DNA from: an uncultured Acidobacteriota bacterium
Lineage (GTDB): Bacteria; Acidobacteriota; Thermoanaerobaculia; Multivoradales; UBA5704
Reading direction: 5' to 3'
Assembly: GCA_963770895.1 (NCBI GenBank)
Contig: CAVYRF010000002.1
Location: forward strand, 1,056,001-1,120,000
DNA length: 64,000 nucleotides
The position numbers were made by a program, and so were the translations under genes. Of this stretch, positions 4,220 to 27,815 are shown piece after piece; position 1 is the first letter of the stretch, and each line of letters starts with the position of its first letter. Below the pieces are notes generated by a model. It had not been told where the DNA came from. It ran no database searches and saw only the letters and a program-made list of their open reading frames with translations.

Positions 4220-5536
4220 TCAGCCAGGCACGGCCGGCGAGCTGGATGGGCGCGCCTGGCGCTCAAAGTCTCGCACGAAGCCGATGGCCATCTCGATCCC
4301 GTCGACGAGCTGACCGCCCACCAGGCAGGCCCGCCGCAGCACCAGCAGTGCCGCGATGGCCTCGCGGCCGATGCGCAGGGCTCGAAACGTTTCAACGACG
4401 TCCTCGCACAGCGAGTACACTTCGGCGACCCGCCCCTGGCGCGACCAGAGGAGCGCCAGCTGCAGGCCGATGCGCGCCGCCGGATAGATCTGCTGGCGAT
4501 CGGTGAACTCCTGTCGCGCCTGCTGGAACGCAGCTTCAGCGCTATCGAGCTTGCCGAGCCCAGCCAGGATGGTGCCTTCGAGCCAGCGCACGCGGCACGG
4601 CTCGATCCCGTCGAAGAGCGCCCGACAGCGCCATAGCAGACGTCGAGCGGCGCGGAAGCGGCCGAGATCGACCAAGTCGCCTATCAGGTTCCAGATGGTC
4701 ACGTTCACCAGCTCCCGATCGGCATCCAGATCGAGCAGGTCGAGCCCCCGGAGCTGCAAGACCAGCGCTTGCGCCGTCTGGTGGTCGTAGAGGGCGAGCA
4801 CCCCCTCGTTGATGAGCATCCTGCCGGCGAGCCGCCAGCGCCAGGCACTGGCATGGCTTTCGTAGGCCAGGGCGAGGAGCTCGCGCCCTTGCGGCGCCTG
4901 GCGTTGATATCCCAGGAGCGAAGCCAGCAGCTCGGCCACGCGAGCCAGCAAGAGATCGGAACCCGACCCCCGCCGGCACCAGTAGACGGCGCGATGCATG
5001 GCGCCGGCAGCACTGTGCAGATCGTCGCAAACTCGATAGGCGTTGGCCAGCTCGGCCCAGGCGAGCCCGCGCAGATCCGCGACCACCCGGCTGCCGTGTT
5101 CCCGCGCCCGCAAGCGGTCGGCGGCACAGACCGCCAACCTGGCGCAGGAGATCATGTCAGCAGGCGATTCTTCGCTCAGGCTGCGGCTGGCTTCCATCAG
5201 CGCCTGCAGGCGCTTGAGGCCGCTGGATCGACTGGCGCCGGCGGCGGTCAGGCTCCAGATGCGGCGCCCCTTCAACAGGCGGGCCAGAGTGTCGGCGGCC
5301 GCCTTTTTGGGGTCCCTGGCAGGTCTTTTCCTGCCGGGGGCCGCTACGGCTCCCACTGCGCCTGGGGCGCTCGGGGTGCTTGCTGCGGTCCGCAAGCGGG
5401 CCGCGGCCTGCGCCGGCCGCAGATCGTGCGGCCCTTGCGCCGGCCGTGACGGGCGCGCGTTGCGAGGGGCCGCGGCTGCCGCGCGGCGGCGAGTCTTTGG
5501 GTGGGCGGTCAGAGGCGCTTTGCGATCCTTGGGCAC
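4220..5536 (-). CDS. TPR-like all-helical cytoplasmic protein
   Basis: Repeated helical motifs (AWAELANAYRVCDDL, WLEGTILAGLGKLDSAEAAFQQARQEF, LALLWSRQGR, REAIAALLVL). GTG 5536 follows an AGGAGA RBS; ATG 5569 is an alternative start. Confidence 0.8.
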   Translation of the reverse strand: MPKDRKAPLTAHPKTRRRAAAAAPRNARPSRPAQGPHDLRPAQAAARLRTAASTPSAPGAVGAVAAPGRKRPARDPKKAAADTLARLLKGRRIWSLTAAGASRSSGLKRLQALMEASRSLSEESPADMISCARLAVCAADRLRAREHGSRVVADLRGLAWAELANAYRVCDDLHSAAGAMHRAVYWCRRGSGSDLLLARVAELLASLLGYQRQAPQGRELLALAYESHASAWRWRLAGRMLINEGVLALYDHQTAQALVLQLRGLDLLDLDADRELVNVTIWNLIGDLVDLGRFRAARRLLWRCRALFDGIEPCRVRWLEGTILAGLGKLDSAEAAFQQARQEFTDRQQIYPAARIGLQLALLWSRQGRVAEVYSLCEDVVETFRALRIGREAIAALLVLRRACLVGGQLVDGIEMAIGFVRDFERQARPSSSPAVPG

Positions 5537-5809
5537 TTTGAATCTCTCCTGAGCTGTACATTGTGCCATCGATTACGCACAAGCGGTAGTATCGGTTGAC
5601 CTCGAGACTCAAGAAAAATGCGCGAACAGGACCGCCAGCCGCACCCCAAGGGCACGAGAGGGAGACGCCGAATGCGACGTAAAGGCGCATCAACAAAGGC
5701 GAATCAGCGCCGGACGGAACTGCGACAGGACGGCTGCGAGCTCTTGAGCCATCGTTCTGCCGATCCGGGCCAGGCGGAGTCGGGGACTAGCTTTCGGGGT
5801 GTCGTGTCG

Positions 5810-5858
5810 AAAAACGGCCCCGCGCGACCTCGGGTTGGGTTCGCGGCGCGCGGGGCCG
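5810..5858 (-). terminator. Intrinsic terminator of the small secreted peptide gene
   Basis: Perfect 12-bp stem CGGCCCCGCGCG/CGCGCGGGGCCG followed by TTTTT on the minus strand, 7 bp after the stop. Confidence 0.8.
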
Positions 5859-5865
5859 AGGACTT

Positions 5866-6147
5866 CTATGGCTGGATCGCCGTTCCTACGACGCAGAGCC
5901 CATTGGGGTCTTTGTTGAAGGCGCAGGTCACGACCGGGCCAGTGCCGTCGGCCAACCGCACCGGCTTCCTGGCTGCCGGGGAGCCCTGCAATCGGTCGAG
6001 GCCTACGAAGTGGGCCACGGCTTGCGTCGCGGTATCGATCCAGCTCCCGGTGGCCCCAGGCCTGCTGGCAGCGGCGGGGGTCGCGAGCGTGAGTACGAGG
6101 CCCAGGGTTGCGGCGCTCAGGATGGGGTGATTGGATGTTGCGGGCAT
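5866..6147 (-). CDS. Small secreted pre-peptide (93 aa) with a C-terminal CAFNKDPNGLC motif
   Basis: GAAGGAGG RBS; Sec signal LSAATLGLVLTLATPAAA; own promoter and terminator. Confidence 0.8.
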   Translation of the reverse strand: MPATSNHPILSAATLGLVLTLATPAAASRPGATGSWIDTATQAVAHFVGLDRLQGSPAARKPVRLADGTGPVVTCAFNKDPNGLCVVGTAIQP

Positions 6148-6288
6148 GAGAACCTCCTTCGGCCGCGGGCAGTCTGGAGGCCGGCATGGTTTCCAGCTTC
6201 CGCGGTTGCTCCTTCGGAGCCGTCCGACCGGGTGAGCGGCGGACTACCGGTTGCAGCAGCCCGTTGCTCCCACCATCGGCTGACAGCT

Positions 6289-6297
6289 ATTATAGCA
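6289..6297 (-). promoter_or_regulatory. Extended -10 sigma-70 promoter (TGcTATAAT) for the peptide gene
   Basis: Exact consensus within an AT-rich island (about 6285-6337) in otherwise very GC-rich DNA. Confidence 0.75.
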
Positions 6298-6487
6298 ATA
6301 AATTGGAATATAGGCATTATTGAAGTTTCAGAATAAAGGCGCCGCCAGAGCCGCCGTACCGCGGCGTGCCGGACCTGTGCCCGGCGGAGTCGAAGTGCGC
6401 ACAAAAGAAAGACACTTACCGGCGGCAATCGGGTTACGAGACGGCGGAACGCCACGCGGCCCGCGCCAGCGCGCAGCCGCGTCAGCC

Positions 6488-6517
6488 TTGACCTGCTTGG
6501 CCAGGCAAGCCTATTCT
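6488..6517 (+). promoter_or_regulatory. Putative sigma-70 promoter
   Basis: TTGACC-N18-TATTCT upstream of the gene at 6569. Confidence 0.5.
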
Positions 6518-6568
6518 CGACATCTCTTGGAGTAGCCAGCGTCGCATCGCTCTCTTCCGTGAAAGGAG

Positions 6569-7066: not shown

Positions 7067-9370
7067 ATGGTAAGTGCACGTCCAGCAGCGTTGATTCTTG
7101 CCCTTGCCGGCGGTTTGATGCCCTGTGTCCAGCAGGCAACCGGACACGGCGCGGCTTGGGCGCAGCCGGTCAGCAATGCCCGGCTTGTGCCAAGCCCCAT
7201 GGCCTCGCCCGCGACGACTCAACCCGCGCAGACTGCCCAGATCGTCCGACCCGGCAGCCTCGGCGTCGCCGGGCGGGTGCTGAGCAACACCACGCCGCTT
7301 GCCGCGGTCGAGGTGTACGCCTACCAGCTGGCCAGCTTCTCGCTGCGCCGCGTCGAAACGGACGGCCAGGGCAACTTCCTGTTCCGCGACCTGCCGGCGG
7401 GCCTCTACAAGATCATCGCGCACAAGCAGGGCTTCGCGCCGGTGGTCATCCTGCTCACCCGCACCGCCGCCCAGGCCTACCAGTATCTCGATCTGCAGCT
7501 GCCGCAACGGCAGGGCGGCGCGGCATCGACCGCGGCGGCCCCGGCCAAGCCTGCCAGCCCCGCCGACAACTTCTGGGCCCTGCGCTCCAGCCTGCCGCCG
7601 GACGTGCTGCGCGACGTCGAAGTGGCGGCGCTGGCCGGCCCCACCGGCCCGATCGCCGTTCCGGACACCGGCGCGGGCCCTGCGGCTGCGGCCGGCGACG
7701 GCCCCGTCCCCGATGCGCCGCAGAGCGGCGACGGCGAAATCAAGGCAGCCAGGGCGCCGCTGCCGGGCGAAGGCGGCTACGCACCGGGCGACGGGCGCTC
7801 GATTCCAGCCGGCGAAAGCCTGGCCGGCCGCTTCCGCACCGAGATCCAGGCCATGACCGGCGTGGCAGACATCGCCCAGGTGGGCGCCGGCCAGGTTTCC
7901 ACCGGCAAGGTGGGCATCCAGGGGCAGCTCGGCGACGTGAAGGTCGGCCTTTCGGGCCGCTTCTGGCTGCTCAATTCGGACGGCTCCGCCGCCGGCGGGC
8001 TGCGCGGGATGCCCGAAGCGAGCGACGGCCAGACCAGCAACGTCTCGCTCAACCTGCAGGCGGGCGCCGGCAGCAGGATCACCCTGGATTCCGTCAGCGA
8101 CCGGTTGGTGCCGCGCAGCGGCCTTGGCAGCGGCGATCCAGTCGGCCTGGATCACTACCAGGTGAGCTGGAGCCAGGCGCTGGGTGAGAGCAGCCATTCC
8201 GACTTCGCCGCCCAGTACACCGCGGCCAACAACTACAACCGCCTGGCGGTCTTCGAGCCGGCGAGCATCCCCGACGCCTCCCGCACCTGGCGGGTCGAAG
8301 GGGCGTACAGCACCAACCTCGGCGACGACAGCTCGCTGCAGACGGGTTTCCGCTACAGCGACCTGCAGGCTGAATTCTCCACGCCGGTGGCCAGCCCCGG
8401 CGGCGGCATCTCCACCTTCAGCAACCTGTCGGCGCAAAGCACCTCGACGCTGTCAGGGCTGACCGGCGCCAACGGTGTCGCGGCGATGCCGCTGGTCCCC
8501 GACTACCAGACGGTGGACCTGTTCAGCCGCGGCACGATGCGCCTGCAAAGTGCGTTCACCGTCGAATACGGCCTGTACACCATGCTCCAGGACGGCAGCC
8601 TGTCGCTCACTCCGCAAGGCGGCTTGGTCCTGCAGCTGGGCGACGGCTGGCAGGTGAAGGGTTCCGCCAGCCAGCGGGTCTACCAGGAAACGGCGGTCGC
8701 TCCCGAATACCTGCCGGTGCTCTACAAGGCAACCGATCTTTGCGAAGACGGCGGCAAGGCCTGCTACGAGATCGACCTCACCAGCCATGCCGGCGAAGAC
8801 AACTCGATCTCCTTCAGCGCGCTGGAGCGCATCGTCGGCCAGACGCTGCAGCTCTATTTCAGCGACGTGGTGTTCGATCGCTTCGAGAACCTCTACCTGG
8901 TTCCCGGCGACCGCCTGCCCGAGCTGCGCCTGATGATGACCTATCGCCTGTCGCCCCACGTCAGGACCCAGCTCGAAACCAGCGTGGCAAGCGGCGGCGG
9001 CGGCACCTTCTTCGGCGCCGACGGGCGGGCCTACCGCAACCAGGTGAGCTACGTGGTCACCTCGCTCGACACCCACGTGCTGAGCACCGCGACCGGTGTG
9101 TTCCTGGCCTTCCGCCACGTGACCCAGGATCTGAGCACGCCCGGCGGCGCCTCGACTTCCGGCGTCCTGGGCCCGGGCGCCACCACGGTCGGCTTCGACC
9201 GCGTGCAGCTGATGATCTCGCAGGACATGAACTTCCTGTGGAAGCTGGCCGCCGAATGGGCGCTCCAGGTCAACATGGAGCTGGAGCGTGACAACGCACC
9301 GTACCTGGCCAGCACCGACTCAGGGCAGATTCACCGTCGCATCCTCGGCGGCATCGCCGTCAAATTCTGA
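7067..9370 (+). CDS. Exported protein with a carboxypeptidase-regulatory-like (beta-sandwich) domain and a probable outer-membrane beta-barrel
   Basis: Signal peptide; TDGQGNFLFRDLPAGLYKIIAHKQGF motif; amphipathic beta strands; C-terminal GGIAVKF beta-signal. Confidence 0.7.
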   Translation: MVSARPAALILALAGGLMPCVQQATGHGAAWAQPVSNARLVPSPMASPATTQPAQTAQIVRPGSLGVAGRVLSNTTPLAAVEVYAYQLASFSLRRVETDGQGNFLFRDLPAGLYKIIAHKQGFAPVVILLTRTAAQAYQYLDLQLPQRQGGAASTAAAPAKPASPADNFWALRSSLPPDVLRDVEVAALAGPTGPIAVPDTGAGPAAAAGDGPVPDAPQSGDGEIKAARAPLPGEGGYAPGDGRSIPAGESLAGRFRTEIQAMTGVADIAQVGAGQVSTGKVGIQGQLGDVKVGLSGRFWLLNSDGSAAGGLRGMPEASDGQTSNVSLNLQAGAGSRITLDSVSDRLVPRSGLGSGDPVGLDHYQVSWSQALGESSHSDFAAQYTAANNYNRLAVFEPASIPDASRTWRVEGAYSTNLGDDSSLQTGFRYSDLQAEFSTPVASPGGGISTFSNLSAQSTSTLSGLTGANGVAAMPLVPDYQTVDLFSRGTMRLQSAFTVEYGLYTMLQDGSLSLTPQGGLVLQLGDGWQVKGSASQRVYQETAVAPEYLPVLYKATDLCEDGGKACYEIDLTSHAGEDNSISFSALERIVGQTLQLYFSDVVFDRFENLYLVPGDRLPELRLMMTYRLSPHVRTQLETSVASGGGGTFFGADGRAYRNQVSYVVTSLDTHVLSTATGVFLAFRHVTQDLSTPGGASTSGVLGPGATTVGFDRVQLMISQDMNFLWKLAAEWALQVNMELERDNAPYLASTDSGQIHRRILGGIAVKF

Positions 9371-23195: not shown

Positions 23196-25457
23196 ATGCT
23201 CGCCGCCGCCCTCCCTCTCGTCCTCGCCCTCACCGGCGCCGATCCGCGCCCCACGCTGGCGGCGCTGCAGCTCGCGGGGCGGCCGGCCGACGCCCTGGAG
23301 CGGGTGCAGCAGGAGCTCGCGACGCAGCCCGCCGCCGTGCGGCCGCTGGGCTTTGACTACCTGCGCGGGCACCTGCTGGAGACGCTGGGGCGCGGCACCG
23401 ACTCGGGGCCGGCGTTCGTCGACGCCATCTCGACGGCCCCCAGGCTCGCGTCGTATTGCCGCTATCGCCTGGCCACCCAGCAGGTGCAGCTCGGCCATCC
23501 CGAGGTGGCGGCCGGCCTGCTCGCCACCGGGCTCGCCGCCGACCCGTCTTCCCAGCTCGCTCCCGATGAAGTCCGCCTGCTCATCCAGACGCTCGGCCGC
23601 GGCGGCGACTGCCGCCTGCTGCGCGGCTTCCGCACCCGGCAGCTGGCCGCCCCCGAGCGGCGCGAAGTCCTGCTGGCGCAGGCGGAATGCGACCTGCGCG
23701 CCGGCGCCGCCCAGCCGGCGCGCGCCCTGCTCGTCGCGCTCCTCGACGAGAACCACGAAGACGACGTGGCGCGCCGCGCCGCGGACCGCCTGGCGCCGCT
23801 GGTCGCCGACGAGCGAGCGCGCCTGCCGCTGCTGCTCAGCGCCACCTTCTTCGAGCACCGCGAATTCGACCGCTCGGTGCGGCAGCTGGCGCGGGTCTTC
23901 GCCCTGATCGGCGTCAAGGGGCGGTCGCCCTCGGCCCACGAGCTGGCCGAGGCGCGCTACAGCCTCGGCCGCGCCGCCTTCTGGGAAGGCCACTTCGACC
24001 AGGCGGCGCGCACCTTCGGTGACGTCGCCGAAGGCGCCCCCAGCGCCGCCGAGCGAGCCCGCGCCATGCTGCAACAGGGGCGCAGCTACGAGATGCTCAC
24101 CGACTGGAAGCGCGCCGCCGCCAGCTTCCGCCTCGCCTTCCTCGCCGAACCCGCCGGCGAATGGGCGGCCTCGTCACTGCTCGAGACCCTGCGCGTGGAA
24201 TGGCGCGGCGGCAACGAAGCCACCGGCGCTTCGCTCCTGGCCATGCTCGGCACCAGCCCGCGCTGGCGCGACTCGGCACGCCGCGCCGCCCTCTTCCTGG
24301 CCGCCTCGGACCTGGTGCGCGGGCGCGGCGACCGCGCGGGCGCCTGGCTCGACCGCGCCGCGGCCGGCGGCCCCGACGAAGAGCGCCCCGAAATCGCCTA
24401 CTGGCGCGGCCGCCTGGCCGAGATCCGCGACCAGCCGCGCGACGCCGTGGCCGCCTACGTCGACGGCCTGCAAGCCGACCTCTACCATCCCCTGTCGCGC
24501 GCCGCCCTGGGCCGCCTGGGCAGCGGCGCCCTGGCCAACGCCGCCCGCGCCGAAGGGCGCCGCCTGGCCTCCTCCCGGCACCCCCGCGACCTCTACGCCG
24601 CCTGGCTGCTGCTCGGCGCCGACGACCCCAGCGGCCGCATCGCCGAGCACCGCCTGCGCAGCCAGCTCCTCGCCGACCCCAACACCGCCCCCTTCCTGCG
24701 CATGAGCGAAGTGCCCATCGACAGCTGGCCCCTCTGGACCGCCACCCTGCGCCGGCCCGAAGACACCCTGCTTGCCCTGGGCCTCTGGCACGAAGGAGCA
24801 CCCGCCGCCCGCGAGCACTTCCCCCCCACCGACCCCGCCCTCGCCCTCACCGGCTGCACCCTGCTCGCCCGCGCCGGCGAAACCCCGCGCGCCATCCTCC
24901 TGGCCGAAGCCCTGCGCGACCGCGTGCCCGCCGACCTGCCGCCGGTGCTCCTCCCCTTCGGCTTCCAGCAGTGCCTCTACCCGCTCGCCTATCGCGAACC
25001 CCTCTTCGCCGAGGGCCGCCTGCGCGGCGTCGACCCCTACCTCATGGCCGCCCTCATCCGCGTCGAAAGCCGCTTCGACCACCTGGCCCTCTCGCCAGGA
25101 GCCGCGCGCGGCCTCACCCAGTTCGTCCTCGCCACCGCCGCCCACGTCGCCGCCGGCCTGGGCATGGACCACCTGGACCCCGACGACCTCTACCGCCCCG
25201 AAGTCGCCATCGACCTGGGAGGCGCCTACCTCGCCCAGCTCCTCCGCACCTTCCGCGGCACCCCCCAAATCGCCATCGCCGCCTACGACGCCGGCGAAAC
25301 CCAAGCCGCCCTCTGGCGAGCCTACTGCGTCAGCCGAGAGCCCGAGGAGTACTTCACCAAAATCGGCTTCCGAGAAACCCGCCTCCACGTAGCCCAAATC
25401 CTATCCACCTGGTCCCGCTACCAACACCTCTACTCCGCCCCACCCACAGCCCCCTGA
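23196..25457 (+). CDS. Soluble lytic transglycosylase (TPR/helical region + SLT domain)
   Basis: IRVESRF (catalytic Glu), GARGLTQF, AAYDAG, IGFRETR; N-terminal signal-like segment. Confidence 0.88.
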   Translation: MLAAALPLVLALTGADPRPTLAALQLAGRPADALERVQQELATQPAAVRPLGFDYLRGHLLETLGRGTDSGPAFVDAISTAPRLASYCRYRLATQQVQLGHPEVAAGLLATGLAADPSSQLAPDEVRLLIQTLGRGGDCRLLRGFRTRQLAAPERREVLLAQAECDLRAGAAQPARALLVALLDENHEDDVARRAADRLAPLVADERARLPLLLSATFFEHREFDRSVRQLARVFALIGVKGRSPSAHELAEARYSLGRAAFWEGHFDQAARTFGDVAEGAPSAAERARAMLQQGRSYEMLTDWKRAAASFRLAFLAEPAGEWAASSLLETLRVEWRGGNEATGASLLAMLGTSPRWRDSARRAALFLAASDLVRGRGDRAGAWLDRAAAGGPDEERPEIAYWRGRLAEIRDQPRDAVAAYVDGLQADLYHPLSRAALGRLGSGALANAARAEGRRLASSRHPRDLYAAWLLLGADDPSGRIAEHRLRSQLLADPNTAPFLRMSEVPIDSWPLWTATLRRPEDTLLALGLWHEGAPAAREHFPPTDPALALTGCTLLARAGETPRAILLAEALRDRVPADLPPVLLPFGFQQCLYPLAYREPLFAEGRLRGVDPYLMAALIRVESRFDHLALSPGAARGLTQFVLATAAHVAAGLGMDHLDPDDLYRPEVAIDLGGAYLAQLLRTFRGTPQIAIAAYDAGETQAALWRAYCVSREPEEYFTKIGFRETRLHVAQILSTWSRYQHLYSAPPTAP

Positions 25458-25588
25458 TCGGCCGCGGGATAGGGGAGCGGGCGGCGCGGAACAGCGAGCA
25501 GCATGCACTACAGTATTGAGAGAACCTTGTGTCCAACCCTGGCATGTTGCTCGGGATGTGGGAGTGGCTCAAGGCGAGGAGATCGAAC

Positions 25589-25996
25589 ATGAACAGAAGG
25601 TTGTCCTTGTGCTTCGGTCTGGTGCTCTTCTGTCTGGCCGCCGCCATGGCCCAGCAACCCGCCGTGGCGACCGCCACCGCACCGACGCCGGCCGTCGCAG
25701 CCGATCGGGCCGCTCCGGCAGCCCCCGCCGCTGCCGCGGCGCCCGCTCTGGCGGCTATCCTGGGATTCGAGCCGGCGGTCGCATGCCCGGCTTCGGCGGC
25801 GACGACGGCGGCACCCTGGGACTCCAAGGCTGGCATCCCGCAGCCGATCAACCTCGCCTGCACCTGCTCGCCGACTCGGGCACAGTGCGAGGCGATGTGC
25901 AATGCGGACGGTCCGAACTGCACCGCGACCTACTCCTGCTCGGTGAGCTGCCACGTCTCTTGCGTCTGTCACGAAGGCGCCGGCTTCTGCGACTGA
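25589..25996 (+). CDS. Secreted Cys-rich pre-pro-peptide (defensin-like)
   Basis: GAGGAG RBS; signal MNRRLSLCFGLVLFCLAAAMA; Ala/Pro-rich spacer; 10 Cys in the last ~45 aa. Confidence 0.8.
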   Translation: MNRRLSLCFGLVLFCLAAAMAQQPAVATATAPTPAVAADRAAPAAPAAAAAPALAAILGFEPAVACPASAATTAAPWDSKAGIPQPINLACTCSPTRAQCEAMCNADGPNCTATYSCSVSCHVSCVCHEGAGFCD

Positions 25997-26113
25997 GCGC
26001 GCCGCCGGAGCGCTGCCTCTCATAGGGGGCCAGGCCGCGCCGGACCTGGGAATCGAGGTGACGGTCGTGGCCGACGCGGGCTGACCTGCGAAGCCGGCCA
26101 AGCGGAAAGGCGG

Positions 26114-26944
26114 TCAGCCGGGCGGCGGGGTGGCAGGTTTGGCGGGGGGCGGGGTGACGTCTTTGCCGGGGCGGGTGCCGGGGGGGAGGGGTGGGGCGTC
26201 GGGTTTCTTGCTCAGGTCGATGCGCTTGACGACGGGGGGGAGGGGGCCGGCGGGGCGGTCCAGGAACGTGGAGATGGTGGCTTTGCTGCGCAGGTCTTCG
26301 GTCCAGCGGTCGAGCTCTTCGGTCAGGCGTTGCTGGCGCAGGACGGCGCGGATGGGGTCGCGTTCGTCGTCCAGGGGCGGCACGGGCAGGTGCTGCTTTT
26401 GCAGCTGCGGGGTGAGGACTTTCTTGTAGTAGGCGGCGATGTCGTCCAGGGTGACGAAGACCTGCGGGCCCAGGCGCTCGTCGACGAAGGTCAGGACGCC
26501 CAGCTGGCGGGCCATCATCTGGCGCAGGCCGGCTTCGTCCAGGCCGACTTCTTTGAGTTTTTGGCGGAAGGTGGCGTCGTCCTTGAAGCGGACGCGGATG
26601 TCGGCGACCTGCTTTTCGATCTGGTCGACCGGCACCTGTTCGAGGCCGAAACGGTCGATCTCGTGGAAGCGCAGGCGCTGGGCGATGAGGGAGTCCAGCA
26701 GGCGCCGGCGGAAGGCCGCGGGGGCTTCACCGGGGTTGGGCTGCAGCAGGCCGACGACGGCCGCGCGGTCGAGATCGGACGCCAGGATGGGATCGCCGTC
26801 GACCACCGCCATGACGCGGTCTTTGAGCTGGTTGGGAGAGGCCGCGGGGGGGGCGGCGGGAGCGGCGGCGGCAGCGGCGGATGCGCCCGTCGCGAGCGCC
26901 AGCGCGAGCAGCAGGTGCGGGGCCGGGAACGCCATGGCCGCCAT
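26114..26944 (-). CDS. SurA N-terminal-like periplasmic chaperone without an obvious parvulin domain
   Basis: Signal peptide; DRVMAVVDGDPILASD, LDSLIAQRL, WTEDLRSKATI; ATG 26935 is an alternative start. Confidence 0.78.
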   Translation of the reverse strand: MAAMAFPAPHLLLALALATGASAAAAAAPAAPPAASPNQLKDRVMAVVDGDPILASDLDRAAVVGLLQPNPGEAPAAFRRRLLDSLIAQRLRFHEIDRFGLEQVPVDQIEKQVADIRVRFKDDATFRQKLKEVGLDEAGLRQMMARQLGVLTFVDERLGPQVFVTLDDIAAYYKKVLTPQLQKQHLPVPPLDDERDPIRAVLRQQRLTEELDRWTEDLRSKATISTFLDRPAGPLPPVVKRIDLSKKPDAPPLPPGTRPGKDVTPPPAKPATPPPG

Positions 26945-26963
26945 GCTAGCATCCGTCGTCAGG

Positions 26964-27815
26964 ATGGCTGACATCCCTTCCCGGCTGACCGTCGGACTCG
27001 CCCAGATCGATTGCCGCCTGGGCGATATCGCGGGCAACGTCGAGCGGCACCTGGACTGGATCGAGCGGGCGCGGGCGGACGGCGTGGACCTGCTGGTGTT
27101 CCCCGAGCTGTCGCTGACCGGCTATCGGCTGCTGCATCTGACGCCGCGCGTGGCGCTCGCCGCCGACTCCGGCGAGCTGGCGCGCCTGGCCGCGGCGGCG
27201 GGGGACATGGCGGTGCTCGCGGGCTTCGTCGAAGAGGGCCCGCGCGGGGCGCTCTACAACAGCGCGGTGCTGCTGTCACAGGGGCGCGTCAGGGTCGTCC
27301 ACCGCAAGCTCTACCTGCCGACCTACGGCATTTTTCAGGAGCATCGGTTTCTCACCGCGGGGCGCCGCCTCGACCTGCTGGGCCTGCCCTGGGGCACCGC
27401 GGGGGTGCTGATCTGCGAAGACCTGTGGCACCCCGAGCTGGCGCGCCGCCTGGCGCTGGGCGGCGCCCGGCTGATCGTGGTGCCGTCGGCCGGGCCCGGC
27501 CGCATCGGCGCCGGCGAGGTGCCCGAAAGCGCCGAAAGCTGGGAGCTGCTGACCCGCTCCGCCGCGCTGCTCAATACCTGCTGGATCGTCTACGTCAACC
27601 GCGTGGGCTGGGAAGAAGGATCGTTCTACACCGGCGGCAGCCACGTGGTGCGGCCCGGCGGCGACCTGGTGGAGCGCGCGCCGTTCCTCGCCGAGCACCT
27701 GCTGACGATGCAGATCGACCTGCGCGACGCCGATCGTCTGCGCTGGAAGCTGCCGCTGCTGTCCGACGACCGCAGCGACATCACCGGCCCGGCGGCGCCT
27801 CAGGAGACACCGTGA
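26964..27815 (+). CDS. Nitrilase-fold glutaminase subunit of NAD synthetase (carbon-nitrogen hydrolase)
   Basis: E-K-C triad: FPELSLTGY, HRKLYLPTYGIF, LICEDLW; GTGA overlap with nadE. Confidence 0.88.
   Translation: MADIPSRLTVGLAQIDCRLGDIAGNVERHLDWIERARADGVDLLVFPELSLTGYRLLHLTPRVALAADSGELARLAAAAGDMAVLAGFVEEGPRGALYNSAVLLSQGRVRVVHRKLYLPTYGIFQEHRFLTAGRRLDLLGLPWGTAGVLICEDLWHPELARRLALGGARLIVVPSAGPGRIGAGEVPESAESWELLTRSAALLNTCWIVYVNRVGWEEGSFYTGGSHVVRPGGDLVERAPFLAEHLLTMQIDLRDADRLRWKLPLLSDDRSDITGPAAPQETP

Follow-up and report, generated by a model that had tools for sequence, protein, structure and literature searches.

The gene considered here lies at positions 25589 to 25996 on the forward strand of a 64,000-nucleotide window of contig CAVYRF010000002.1 (positions 1,056,001 to 1,120,000, assembly GCA_963770895.1), from an uncultured Acidobacteriota bacterium of the Thermoanaerobaculia. 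It encodes a small, probably exported protein with ten cysteines in its C-terminal domain. The open reading frame (ORF) has no internal stop and comprises 135 codons, and its product is the protein quoted in an earlier, sequence-only reading of this DNA, where it was described as an orphan defensin-like pre-pro-peptide. Frames overlap on both strands of this region, and many long frames of a high-GC genome are spurious. The GC content of the first, second and third codon positions is 0.62, 0.68 and 0.82, and the peak of third-position GC (GC3) falls in the 25589-25996 frame. It is on account of this GC3 signature, of a GAGGAG ribosome-binding site and of a start codon with which the aligned family members agree that we regard the frame as the real one and the ORF as a real gene. 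Richness in cysteine is not by itself rare in this genome, in which 634 stop-to-stop frames have at least eight cysteines in their last 50 residues; by eye, most of those printed look out of frame. In what follows G000 is the genome of the window, the other G numbers are relatives and L028 is a metagenome contig. The features of the locus are the following, in window coordinates:

25480..25588, plus strand: conserved stretch ahead of the gene, probably its promoter and 5' leader, which appears to move with it (about 90% identity to G005 and L028)
25576..25581, plus strand: Shine-Dalgarno-like GAGGAG, 7 nt ahead of the ATG, read from the sequence and kept in G005 and L028
25589..25996, plus strand: coding sequence, 135 amino acids and stop (GC3 0.82; proteins 88-95% identical in one congener and in metagenomes)
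25589..25651, plus strand: putative Sec-type signal peptide, residues 1-21, likely cleaved between A-M-A and Q, read by eye
25652..25858, plus strand: Ala/Pro-rich N-terminal tail, residues 22-90, from composition and from a predicted local distance difference test score (pLDDT) below 50 over residues 20-94
25748..25795, plus strand: tail motif L-x-x-I-L-G-F-E-P-A-V-A-C-P-A-S, conserved in family alignments
25859..25993, plus strand: ten-cysteine C-terminal domain, residues 91-135, with the spacing C-1-C-6-C-3-C-6-C-5-C-3-C-3-C-1-C-6-C

The protein begins with MNRR, a hydrophobic stretch and A-M-A, followed by Q22, which by eye resembles a signal peptide; an N-terminal lysine or arginine with a hydrophobic stretch recurs in all 24 rows viewed of the 70-sequence family alignment described below. 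Residues 23-90 (68 amino acids) are 57% alanine and proline and end in PQPINLA; cleavage of the tail at this motif is not supported by the results. The core formed by residues 91-135 (45 amino acids, 22% cysteine) contains ten cysteines, among them the CxxxC pair C100/C104 and the CxC pair C125/C127, and with one basic and four acidic residues it has a net charge (K+R-D-E) of -3. The full-length protein contains 13 cysteines: the ten of the core, two in the signal peptide, and C66 in the tail. The signal peptide, the Ala/Pro region of about 70 residues, the ten-cysteine core and its acidity are thus all as the sequence-only reading had given them.

The description as an orphan, on the other hand, has to be abandoned, for at least 70 family clusters were found. 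The early appearance of an orphan arose because only close relatives scored in the first searches. Used as a single query, the window protein retrieved two clusters only, and a four-sequence profile run with HMMER over 1.84 billion representatives returned 2 matches, both near-identical proteins. Among 40 related genomes, a single orthologue came up in the congener G005 (one out of nine further genomes of the genus), along with a weak match in G021, a genome of another genus, which carries two tandem paralogues of the same build as the window protein. When 300 genomes of the order were searched with a profile, five further genuine distant members came to light; a weak match in G192, with an in-frame stop and no cysteine pattern, was discarded. 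With a profile of nine diverse members, at least 70 proteins were recovered at E <= 0.01, all of them 71-136 amino acids long. The named ones are annotated 'hypothetical protein' of Thermoanaerobaculia or Acidobacteria bacteria, and two of them are identical to the proteins of G023 and G258, both genomes of the taxonomic family to which the window genome belongs.

By the 70-sequence profile the family occurs in 20 of the 300 genomes searched from the order and in 9 of 89 genera; of 401 genomes sampled across the phylum, only G000 was matched. As far as sampled, the family is limited to one order of Thermoanaerobaculia-type Acidobacteriota. No paralogue of the gene was found in G000, and no longer fused forms of the family were found, the latter being weak evidence. 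Searched against metagenome and genome contig collections the window protein gave no match, while the query P0005 gave one contig of 1.3 kb; the ESM Atlas returned no usable match for the cysteine domain, P0021 scoring at most 0.80 and to unnamed clusters only. None of the 70 members has a Pfam or NCBIfam match above chance level or matches any PDB sequence, and no defensin family stands among the chance-level matches; the window protein itself matches no Pfam family at E <= 1, no NCBIfam family at E <= 10 and no PDB sequence at E <= 10.

In the 70-sequence alignment, whose mean column identity is 39%, eight cysteine columns are invariant, including the CxxxC and the last CxC to which the sequence-only reading had drawn attention, and at least 90% of the sequences retain two more; the domain holds exactly ten cysteines in every one of the 76 stored family proteins. 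The main spacing, 0-7-3-6-5-4-1-1-1 (CC-7-C-3-C-6-C-5-C-4-C-1-C-1-C-1-C), is found in 62 of these 76, and the spacing of the window protein, 1-6-3-6-5-3-3-1-6, in seven. Proteins of the window type lack the second cysteine of the terminal CxCxCxC run and have instead a new cysteine on a seven-residue C-terminal extension, and it looks as though one disulfide had been re-routed in this branch. The charge of the domain differs as well, from neutral to +2 in the main family to -3 in the window branch. Judged by these patterns, the window gene represents a rare, acidic and divergent branch in which the pattern of the C-terminal cysteines is shifted.

The tail, too, is more than pure low complexity. 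Two tail cysteines are present in 32 of the 76 proteins, one in another 32 and none in 11. Where there are two, they stand 15-17 residues apart around a conserved D-L-x-x-(I/L)-(L/F)-A ... V-C, and the window tail retains the second half of this loop as I-L-G-F-E-P-A-V-A-C.

For the fold, AlphaFold2 was run twice, on the full-length protein with 5 sequences and on its last 62 residues with 4 sequences. Both models contain a helix at residues 97-107, which carries C100 and C104, a strand at 111-117 and a second strand at 121-127, which carries C125 and C127, with pLDDT values of 52-71 over these elements. Furthermore, the published expression for bacterial defensins, CX(2,18)CX3CX(2,12)CX(4,17)CXC, matches the window domain and all 76 family proteins. 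A cysteine-stabilised alpha/beta (CS-alpha/beta, cis-defensin-like) core with two extra disulfides would be the single most likely fold on these models, a choice we make tentatively and at somewhat less than even chances.

The explanation we propose, which we consider probable as a whole, is that of an accessory mobile gene encoding a stand-alone, Sec-exported pre-protein, in which a five-disulfide mini-domain is borne on a flexible tail. The pre-protein would be exported via Sec and its signal peptide removed after A-M-A, at residue 21. Outside the cytoplasm the ten cysteines of the domain would be oxidised to five disulfides; disulfide folding had already been put forward in the sequence-only reading as the simplest model, and our results support it. 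The product would be a very compact and stable domain of 45 residues, borne by a flexible tail of about 70 residues that is rich in alanine and proline. In its most likely shape, the domain would consist of an alpha-helix, with the CxxxC, packed on a beta-hairpin whose last strand has the CxC. By analogy with defensin-like peptides, it may serve as a stable extracellular binding module, the target of which would be an envelope molecule of another organism or an extracellular protein. Since the window branch no longer has the basic residues that the main family carries, charge-driven membrane attack is unlikely for it. G000 has a DsbA-like Thioredoxin_4 gene at C2:1046287-1046754 (minus strand), the only match of the genome, about 9 kb before the window; the match sits in an open frame of 395 amino acids, which might hold a fused membrane part.

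Several observations weigh against this explanation, and above all against a defensin-like core. The mature protein would hold 11 cysteines, an odd number, and neither a DsbB nor a VKOR family was found in G000. The two models have mean pLDDT values of 46 and 57, with 59-71 in the core, and were built on shallow alignments of 5 and 4 sequences. Of the AlphaFold and Foldseek comparison suggested in the sequence-only reading, the helix and hairpin elements appeared in both models, but a Foldseek search of the PDB had no match at E <= 0.001, a plant defensin ranking only sixth with E = 9. No defensin sequence or profile similarity was detected for the window protein in Pfam, NCBIfam or the PDB. 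Finally, the cysteine expression is also matched by 3416 of 20000 shuffles of the domain (17%), so that the match is weak evidence for a defensin fold.

These same observations give room to an exported five-disulfide mini-protein of a non-defensin fold, either a new knot or a thionin-like structure. Its role would be that of a signal ligand, or else it would inhibit an enzyme in the periplasm or outside the cell. In its favour are the lack of any defensin match by sequence or, at significant level, by structure, the weakness of the cysteine expression as evidence, the ten cysteines and the near-neutral to acidic charge; there is also the fact that each of the tandem paralogues of G021 adjoins a membrane-type regulator with winged-helix and tetratricopeptide repeat (TPR) parts. 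The CC-x7-C-x3-C opening and, in the window branch, the CxxxCxC-x6-C segment resemble the cysteine framework of plant thionins. Unlike thionins, the protein has no Pfam thionin match, and the model shows a hairpin where thionins have their second helix; none of the structural matches listed is a thionin. We hold this alternative to be unlikely, though far from negligible.

The cysteines could also serve another chemistry. In a periplasmic or extracellular metallothionein-like protein, they would hold copper, zinc or cadmium together with two histidines, and no disulfides would be formed. A domain that is 22% cysteine, the CxC runs (CxCxCxC in the main family), the histidine beside cysteine in the window branch and the odd cysteine total of the mature protein are all compatible with such a role. 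On the other hand, Sec export would deliver the protein into an oxidising compartment, the cysteine count of the domain is an even ten in all 76 proteins, and the histidines are unconserved, being replaced by glutamine in close relatives; in addition, no metal-resistance genes lie near the family loci and no Pfam metallothionein match was obtained. Metal binding is, in our judgement, improbable, and the oxidised five-disulfide domain is preferred to it.

The surroundings of the gene bear on two further alternatives. As the sequence-only reading had indicated, it sits among housekeeping genes, directly after a lytic transglycosylase: upstream, on the same strand, lies a gene for an SLT-domain protein (Slt, 23196-25457), preceded by MurA, and downstream a convergent SurA-like gene (26114-27037). 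The wider setting is a housekeeping run with RF-1, PrmC and MurA, and then NAD synthase and RsmI-like genes. No peptide-modifying enzyme families were found in the ORFs scanned over about 14-37 kb of the window. Eight loci of the family were compared (G000, G005, G021, G238, G258, G023, G233 and G152), and they offer eight different neighbourhoods: CAP-domain and PIN genes in G005, winged-helix/TPR regulators in G021, a GMC oxidoreductase in G238, a multihaem-TPR protein in G258, a methyltransferase and a patatin in G023, Band 7 and CHAT genes in G233, and AbiEi in G152. At none of the eight is there a recurring modifying enzyme, transporter or immunity gene, which argues against a ribosomally synthesised and post-translationally modified peptide (RiPP), as well as against an operon of the classical bacteriocin type and a functional connection with Slt. 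The gene stands alone as an accessory gene, and no partner gene is needed.

A RiPP precursor, with thioether or radical-SAM cross-links, for example, on a core rich in cysteine, serine and threonine, would be in keeping with the composition of the core and with the presence in G000 of other Cys/Thr-rich peptides that have typical leader motifs. The N-terminus, however, is a Sec-type signal peptide and not a cytoplasmic leader, and the lack of RiPP enzymes beside the gene, remarked on in the sequence-only reading, extends to the seven other loci. Near family loci a single radical-SAM gene was seen, one of the CofH/MqnC type in G021, and it is separated from the family gene by about 2 kb and a regulator. 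We regard this alternative as very improbable.

Still more remote is the idea of an inhibitor or partner of the adjoining lytic transglycosylase. It is prompted by the position of the gene directly 3' of the SLT-domain gene and on the same strand, but this adjacency is seen in G000 only, all other members of the family being located elsewhere, and the link suggested in the sequence-only reading is not supported. In G009 the Slt and SurA-like genes adjoin, with less than 200 bp between the matched parts and no Cys-rich gene, and in G002 the gap between them is occupied by genes for an extracytoplasmic function (ECF) sigma factor and an anti-sigma factor of the ChrR type. For the remaining seven congeners, the 1.5 kb beside the SurA-like gene showed no Slt. 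Compared across G000, G009 and G002, the gap between Slt and the SurA-like gene (window 25458-26113) is a variable spot in the genus. Moreover, homology with G005 starts 22 bp past the Slt stop, and the gene therefore carries its own upstream region.

The arrangement in G021 deserves a separate mention. Each of its tandem paralogues adjoins a regulator composed of Trans_reg_C (winged-helix) and TPR parts (C2:2244000-2258000, at 4882-6549 on the minus strand and 7095-8756 on the plus strand); the second regulator is split over two frames, one with Trans_reg_C and one with TPR, and is frameshifted or mis-assembled. This could be a peptide/sensor pair, seen at one of the eight loci.

The account of a self-sufficient accessory gene is strengthened by the DNA comparison of the three closest copies. 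Similarity to G005 (88%) and to L028 is restricted to positions 25480-26004, the flanks being unrelated in all three, so that the shared segment takes in the gene together with 109 bp ahead of it and a few bases past its end. The upstream region at 25480-25588 is single-copy in G000, in which no second copy of either the region or the gene exists. Between the gene and its G005 orthologue the synonymous divergence is 0.11 (10 changes in 98.8 sites), and the corresponding value for the SurA-like neighbour and its G005 orthologue reaches 0.63 (69 changes in 162 sites). This low synonymous divergence, the unrelated flanks and the patchy distribution together suggest a recent transfer of a self-contained cassette between congeners. 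This interpretation is based on a single comparator gene. A weak point of the proposed explanation more generally is the ratio of non-synonymous to synonymous divergence (dN/dS) relative to G005, about 0.58 from only 27 differences, so that constraint is weak or recent.

Neither a sigma-70-like nor a sigma-54-like promoter consensus was found in the upstream region. An upstream TGGCA(T/C)..TTGC was considered as a sigma-54 site and rejected, as the spacing is wrong and the best match at ten family genes reaches 7 of 10 positions. Rfam returned two chance-level matches only on 25300-26200. Inverted repeats at the cassette ends were dismissed as GC-rich noise, since they are not common to the three copies, which share no terminal repeats.

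Part of the stretch is present in seven RNA libraries, and contigs from four soil metatranscriptome runs, belonging to four studies, were mapped onto it. These contigs (159-325 nt) are confined to 25531-26016, reaching upstream no further than 25531, and none falls on the Slt gene; the sole outlier, 34 bases long and with 4 mismatches, falls at 26161-26194 in the SurA-like gene (run X14). Over 187 nt one contig agrees with the window at every base, and the remaining ones show substitutions known from the protein variants. Against this, the contigs are strandless and DNA carry-over is possible. The evidence that the 25589 gene is transcribed in soil is good but not final. Of the outcomes which, for the sequence-only reading, would have told against the peptide, neither a loss of the cysteine pattern, eight columns of which are invariant, nor a lack of RNA was observed.

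G000 encodes other small cysteine-rich ORFs, which are recorded here in their own right. At least six begin like a signal peptide and continue through a linker rich in Ala and Pro into an eight-cysteine C-terminal tail of common pattern (...C-G-x-C-S...C-x-G...C-x-C), and are unrelated in sequence to the ten-cysteine family: C1:844216-844725(+), C1:1273541-1273924(+), C1:67671-68213(-), C1:1218080-1218835(-), C1:482603-482974(-) and C2:79452-79868(+). A second paralogous set comprises exported peptides of about 65-80 amino acids with repeated CxxxC spacing: C1:1844236-1844484(+), C1:482166-482438(+), C1:1797945-1798649(+), C2:3057787-3058041(-), C2:2366134-2366454(-) and C2:2947095-2947343(-). 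Finally, Cys/Thr-rich peptides that have no signal peptide and a leader of the type K-L-x-L-x-R/K-E-T-L look like RiPP precursors; they are found in G000 at C1:1930945-1931259(-), C2:4303987-4304220(+) and C2:3323047-3323364(-), and at L028:15-155(-).

Could the family be an unrecognised lineage of five-disulfide cis-defensins, confined to Thermoanaerobaculia-type Acidobacteriota and spread from species to species on a self-sufficient cassette of about 0.5 kb that comprises the gene and its own promoter region, a lineage of which the window branch has turned from a near-neutral or basic surface to an acidic one and re-routed one disulfide to a new C-terminal extension? We consider this bolder proposal possible but doubtful. 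If true, the branch would exemplify defensin neofunctionalisation arising naturally in bacteria. The bacterial defensin-like peptides known so far are few, almost all of them from Myxobacteria and Proteobacteria, and they bear on whether eukaryotic defensins originated in bacteria; if it is defensin-like, a well-populated acidobacterial ten-cysteine family with natural charge and disulfide variants, apparently transcribed in soil, would widen this picture, and a small scaffold of extreme stability would be gained as well. If the fold differs, the family would still be an undescribed class of secreted disulfide-rich proteins from abundant and poorly studied soil bacteria. The window gene also provides a clean example of a single-gene cassette between housekeeping genes.

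In comparison with known systems, the eukaryotic CS-alpha/beta peptides (plant defensins such as AtD90, ASABF, termicin, eurocin, mytilin and the scorpion toxins) differ in carrying three or four disulfides; most of them are cationic, and their N-terminal tails are short or absent. Their Foldseek similarity to the model is not significant. For the bacterial defensins we draw on a published survey (PMC11561630). Bacterial defensins are described there as having 6-8 cysteines, with one exception that has extra bonds, and non-cationic ones exist, xanthusin-1 of class II being without antimicrobial activity (PMC11561630). Members of class IV, namely fuscusin-2, acidobacterisin-1 and deltaprotesin-1, consist of a signal peptide, an unstructured tail of 21-53 residues and a three-disulfide core (PMC11561630). 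Two differences from this class count against a defensin-like assignment of the window protein: it has ten cysteines where class IV has six, ten being reached only in deltaprotesin-1 by our own count in Table S5, and its tail of 68-69 residues lies outside the published range of 21-53 (PMC11561630). At 135 amino acids it also exceeds the size filter of 130 amino acids applied in that study (PMC11561630). What the window protein and class IV have in common is a signal peptide, a long unstructured tail rich in hydrophobic and acidic residues, and a small cysteine core; moreover, acidobacterisin-1, the class IV member from Acidobacteria, has a lone cysteine and a tryptophan in its tail, as does the window protein, a likeness seen by eye (PMC11561630). 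Of the architectures described, that of class IV comes closest.
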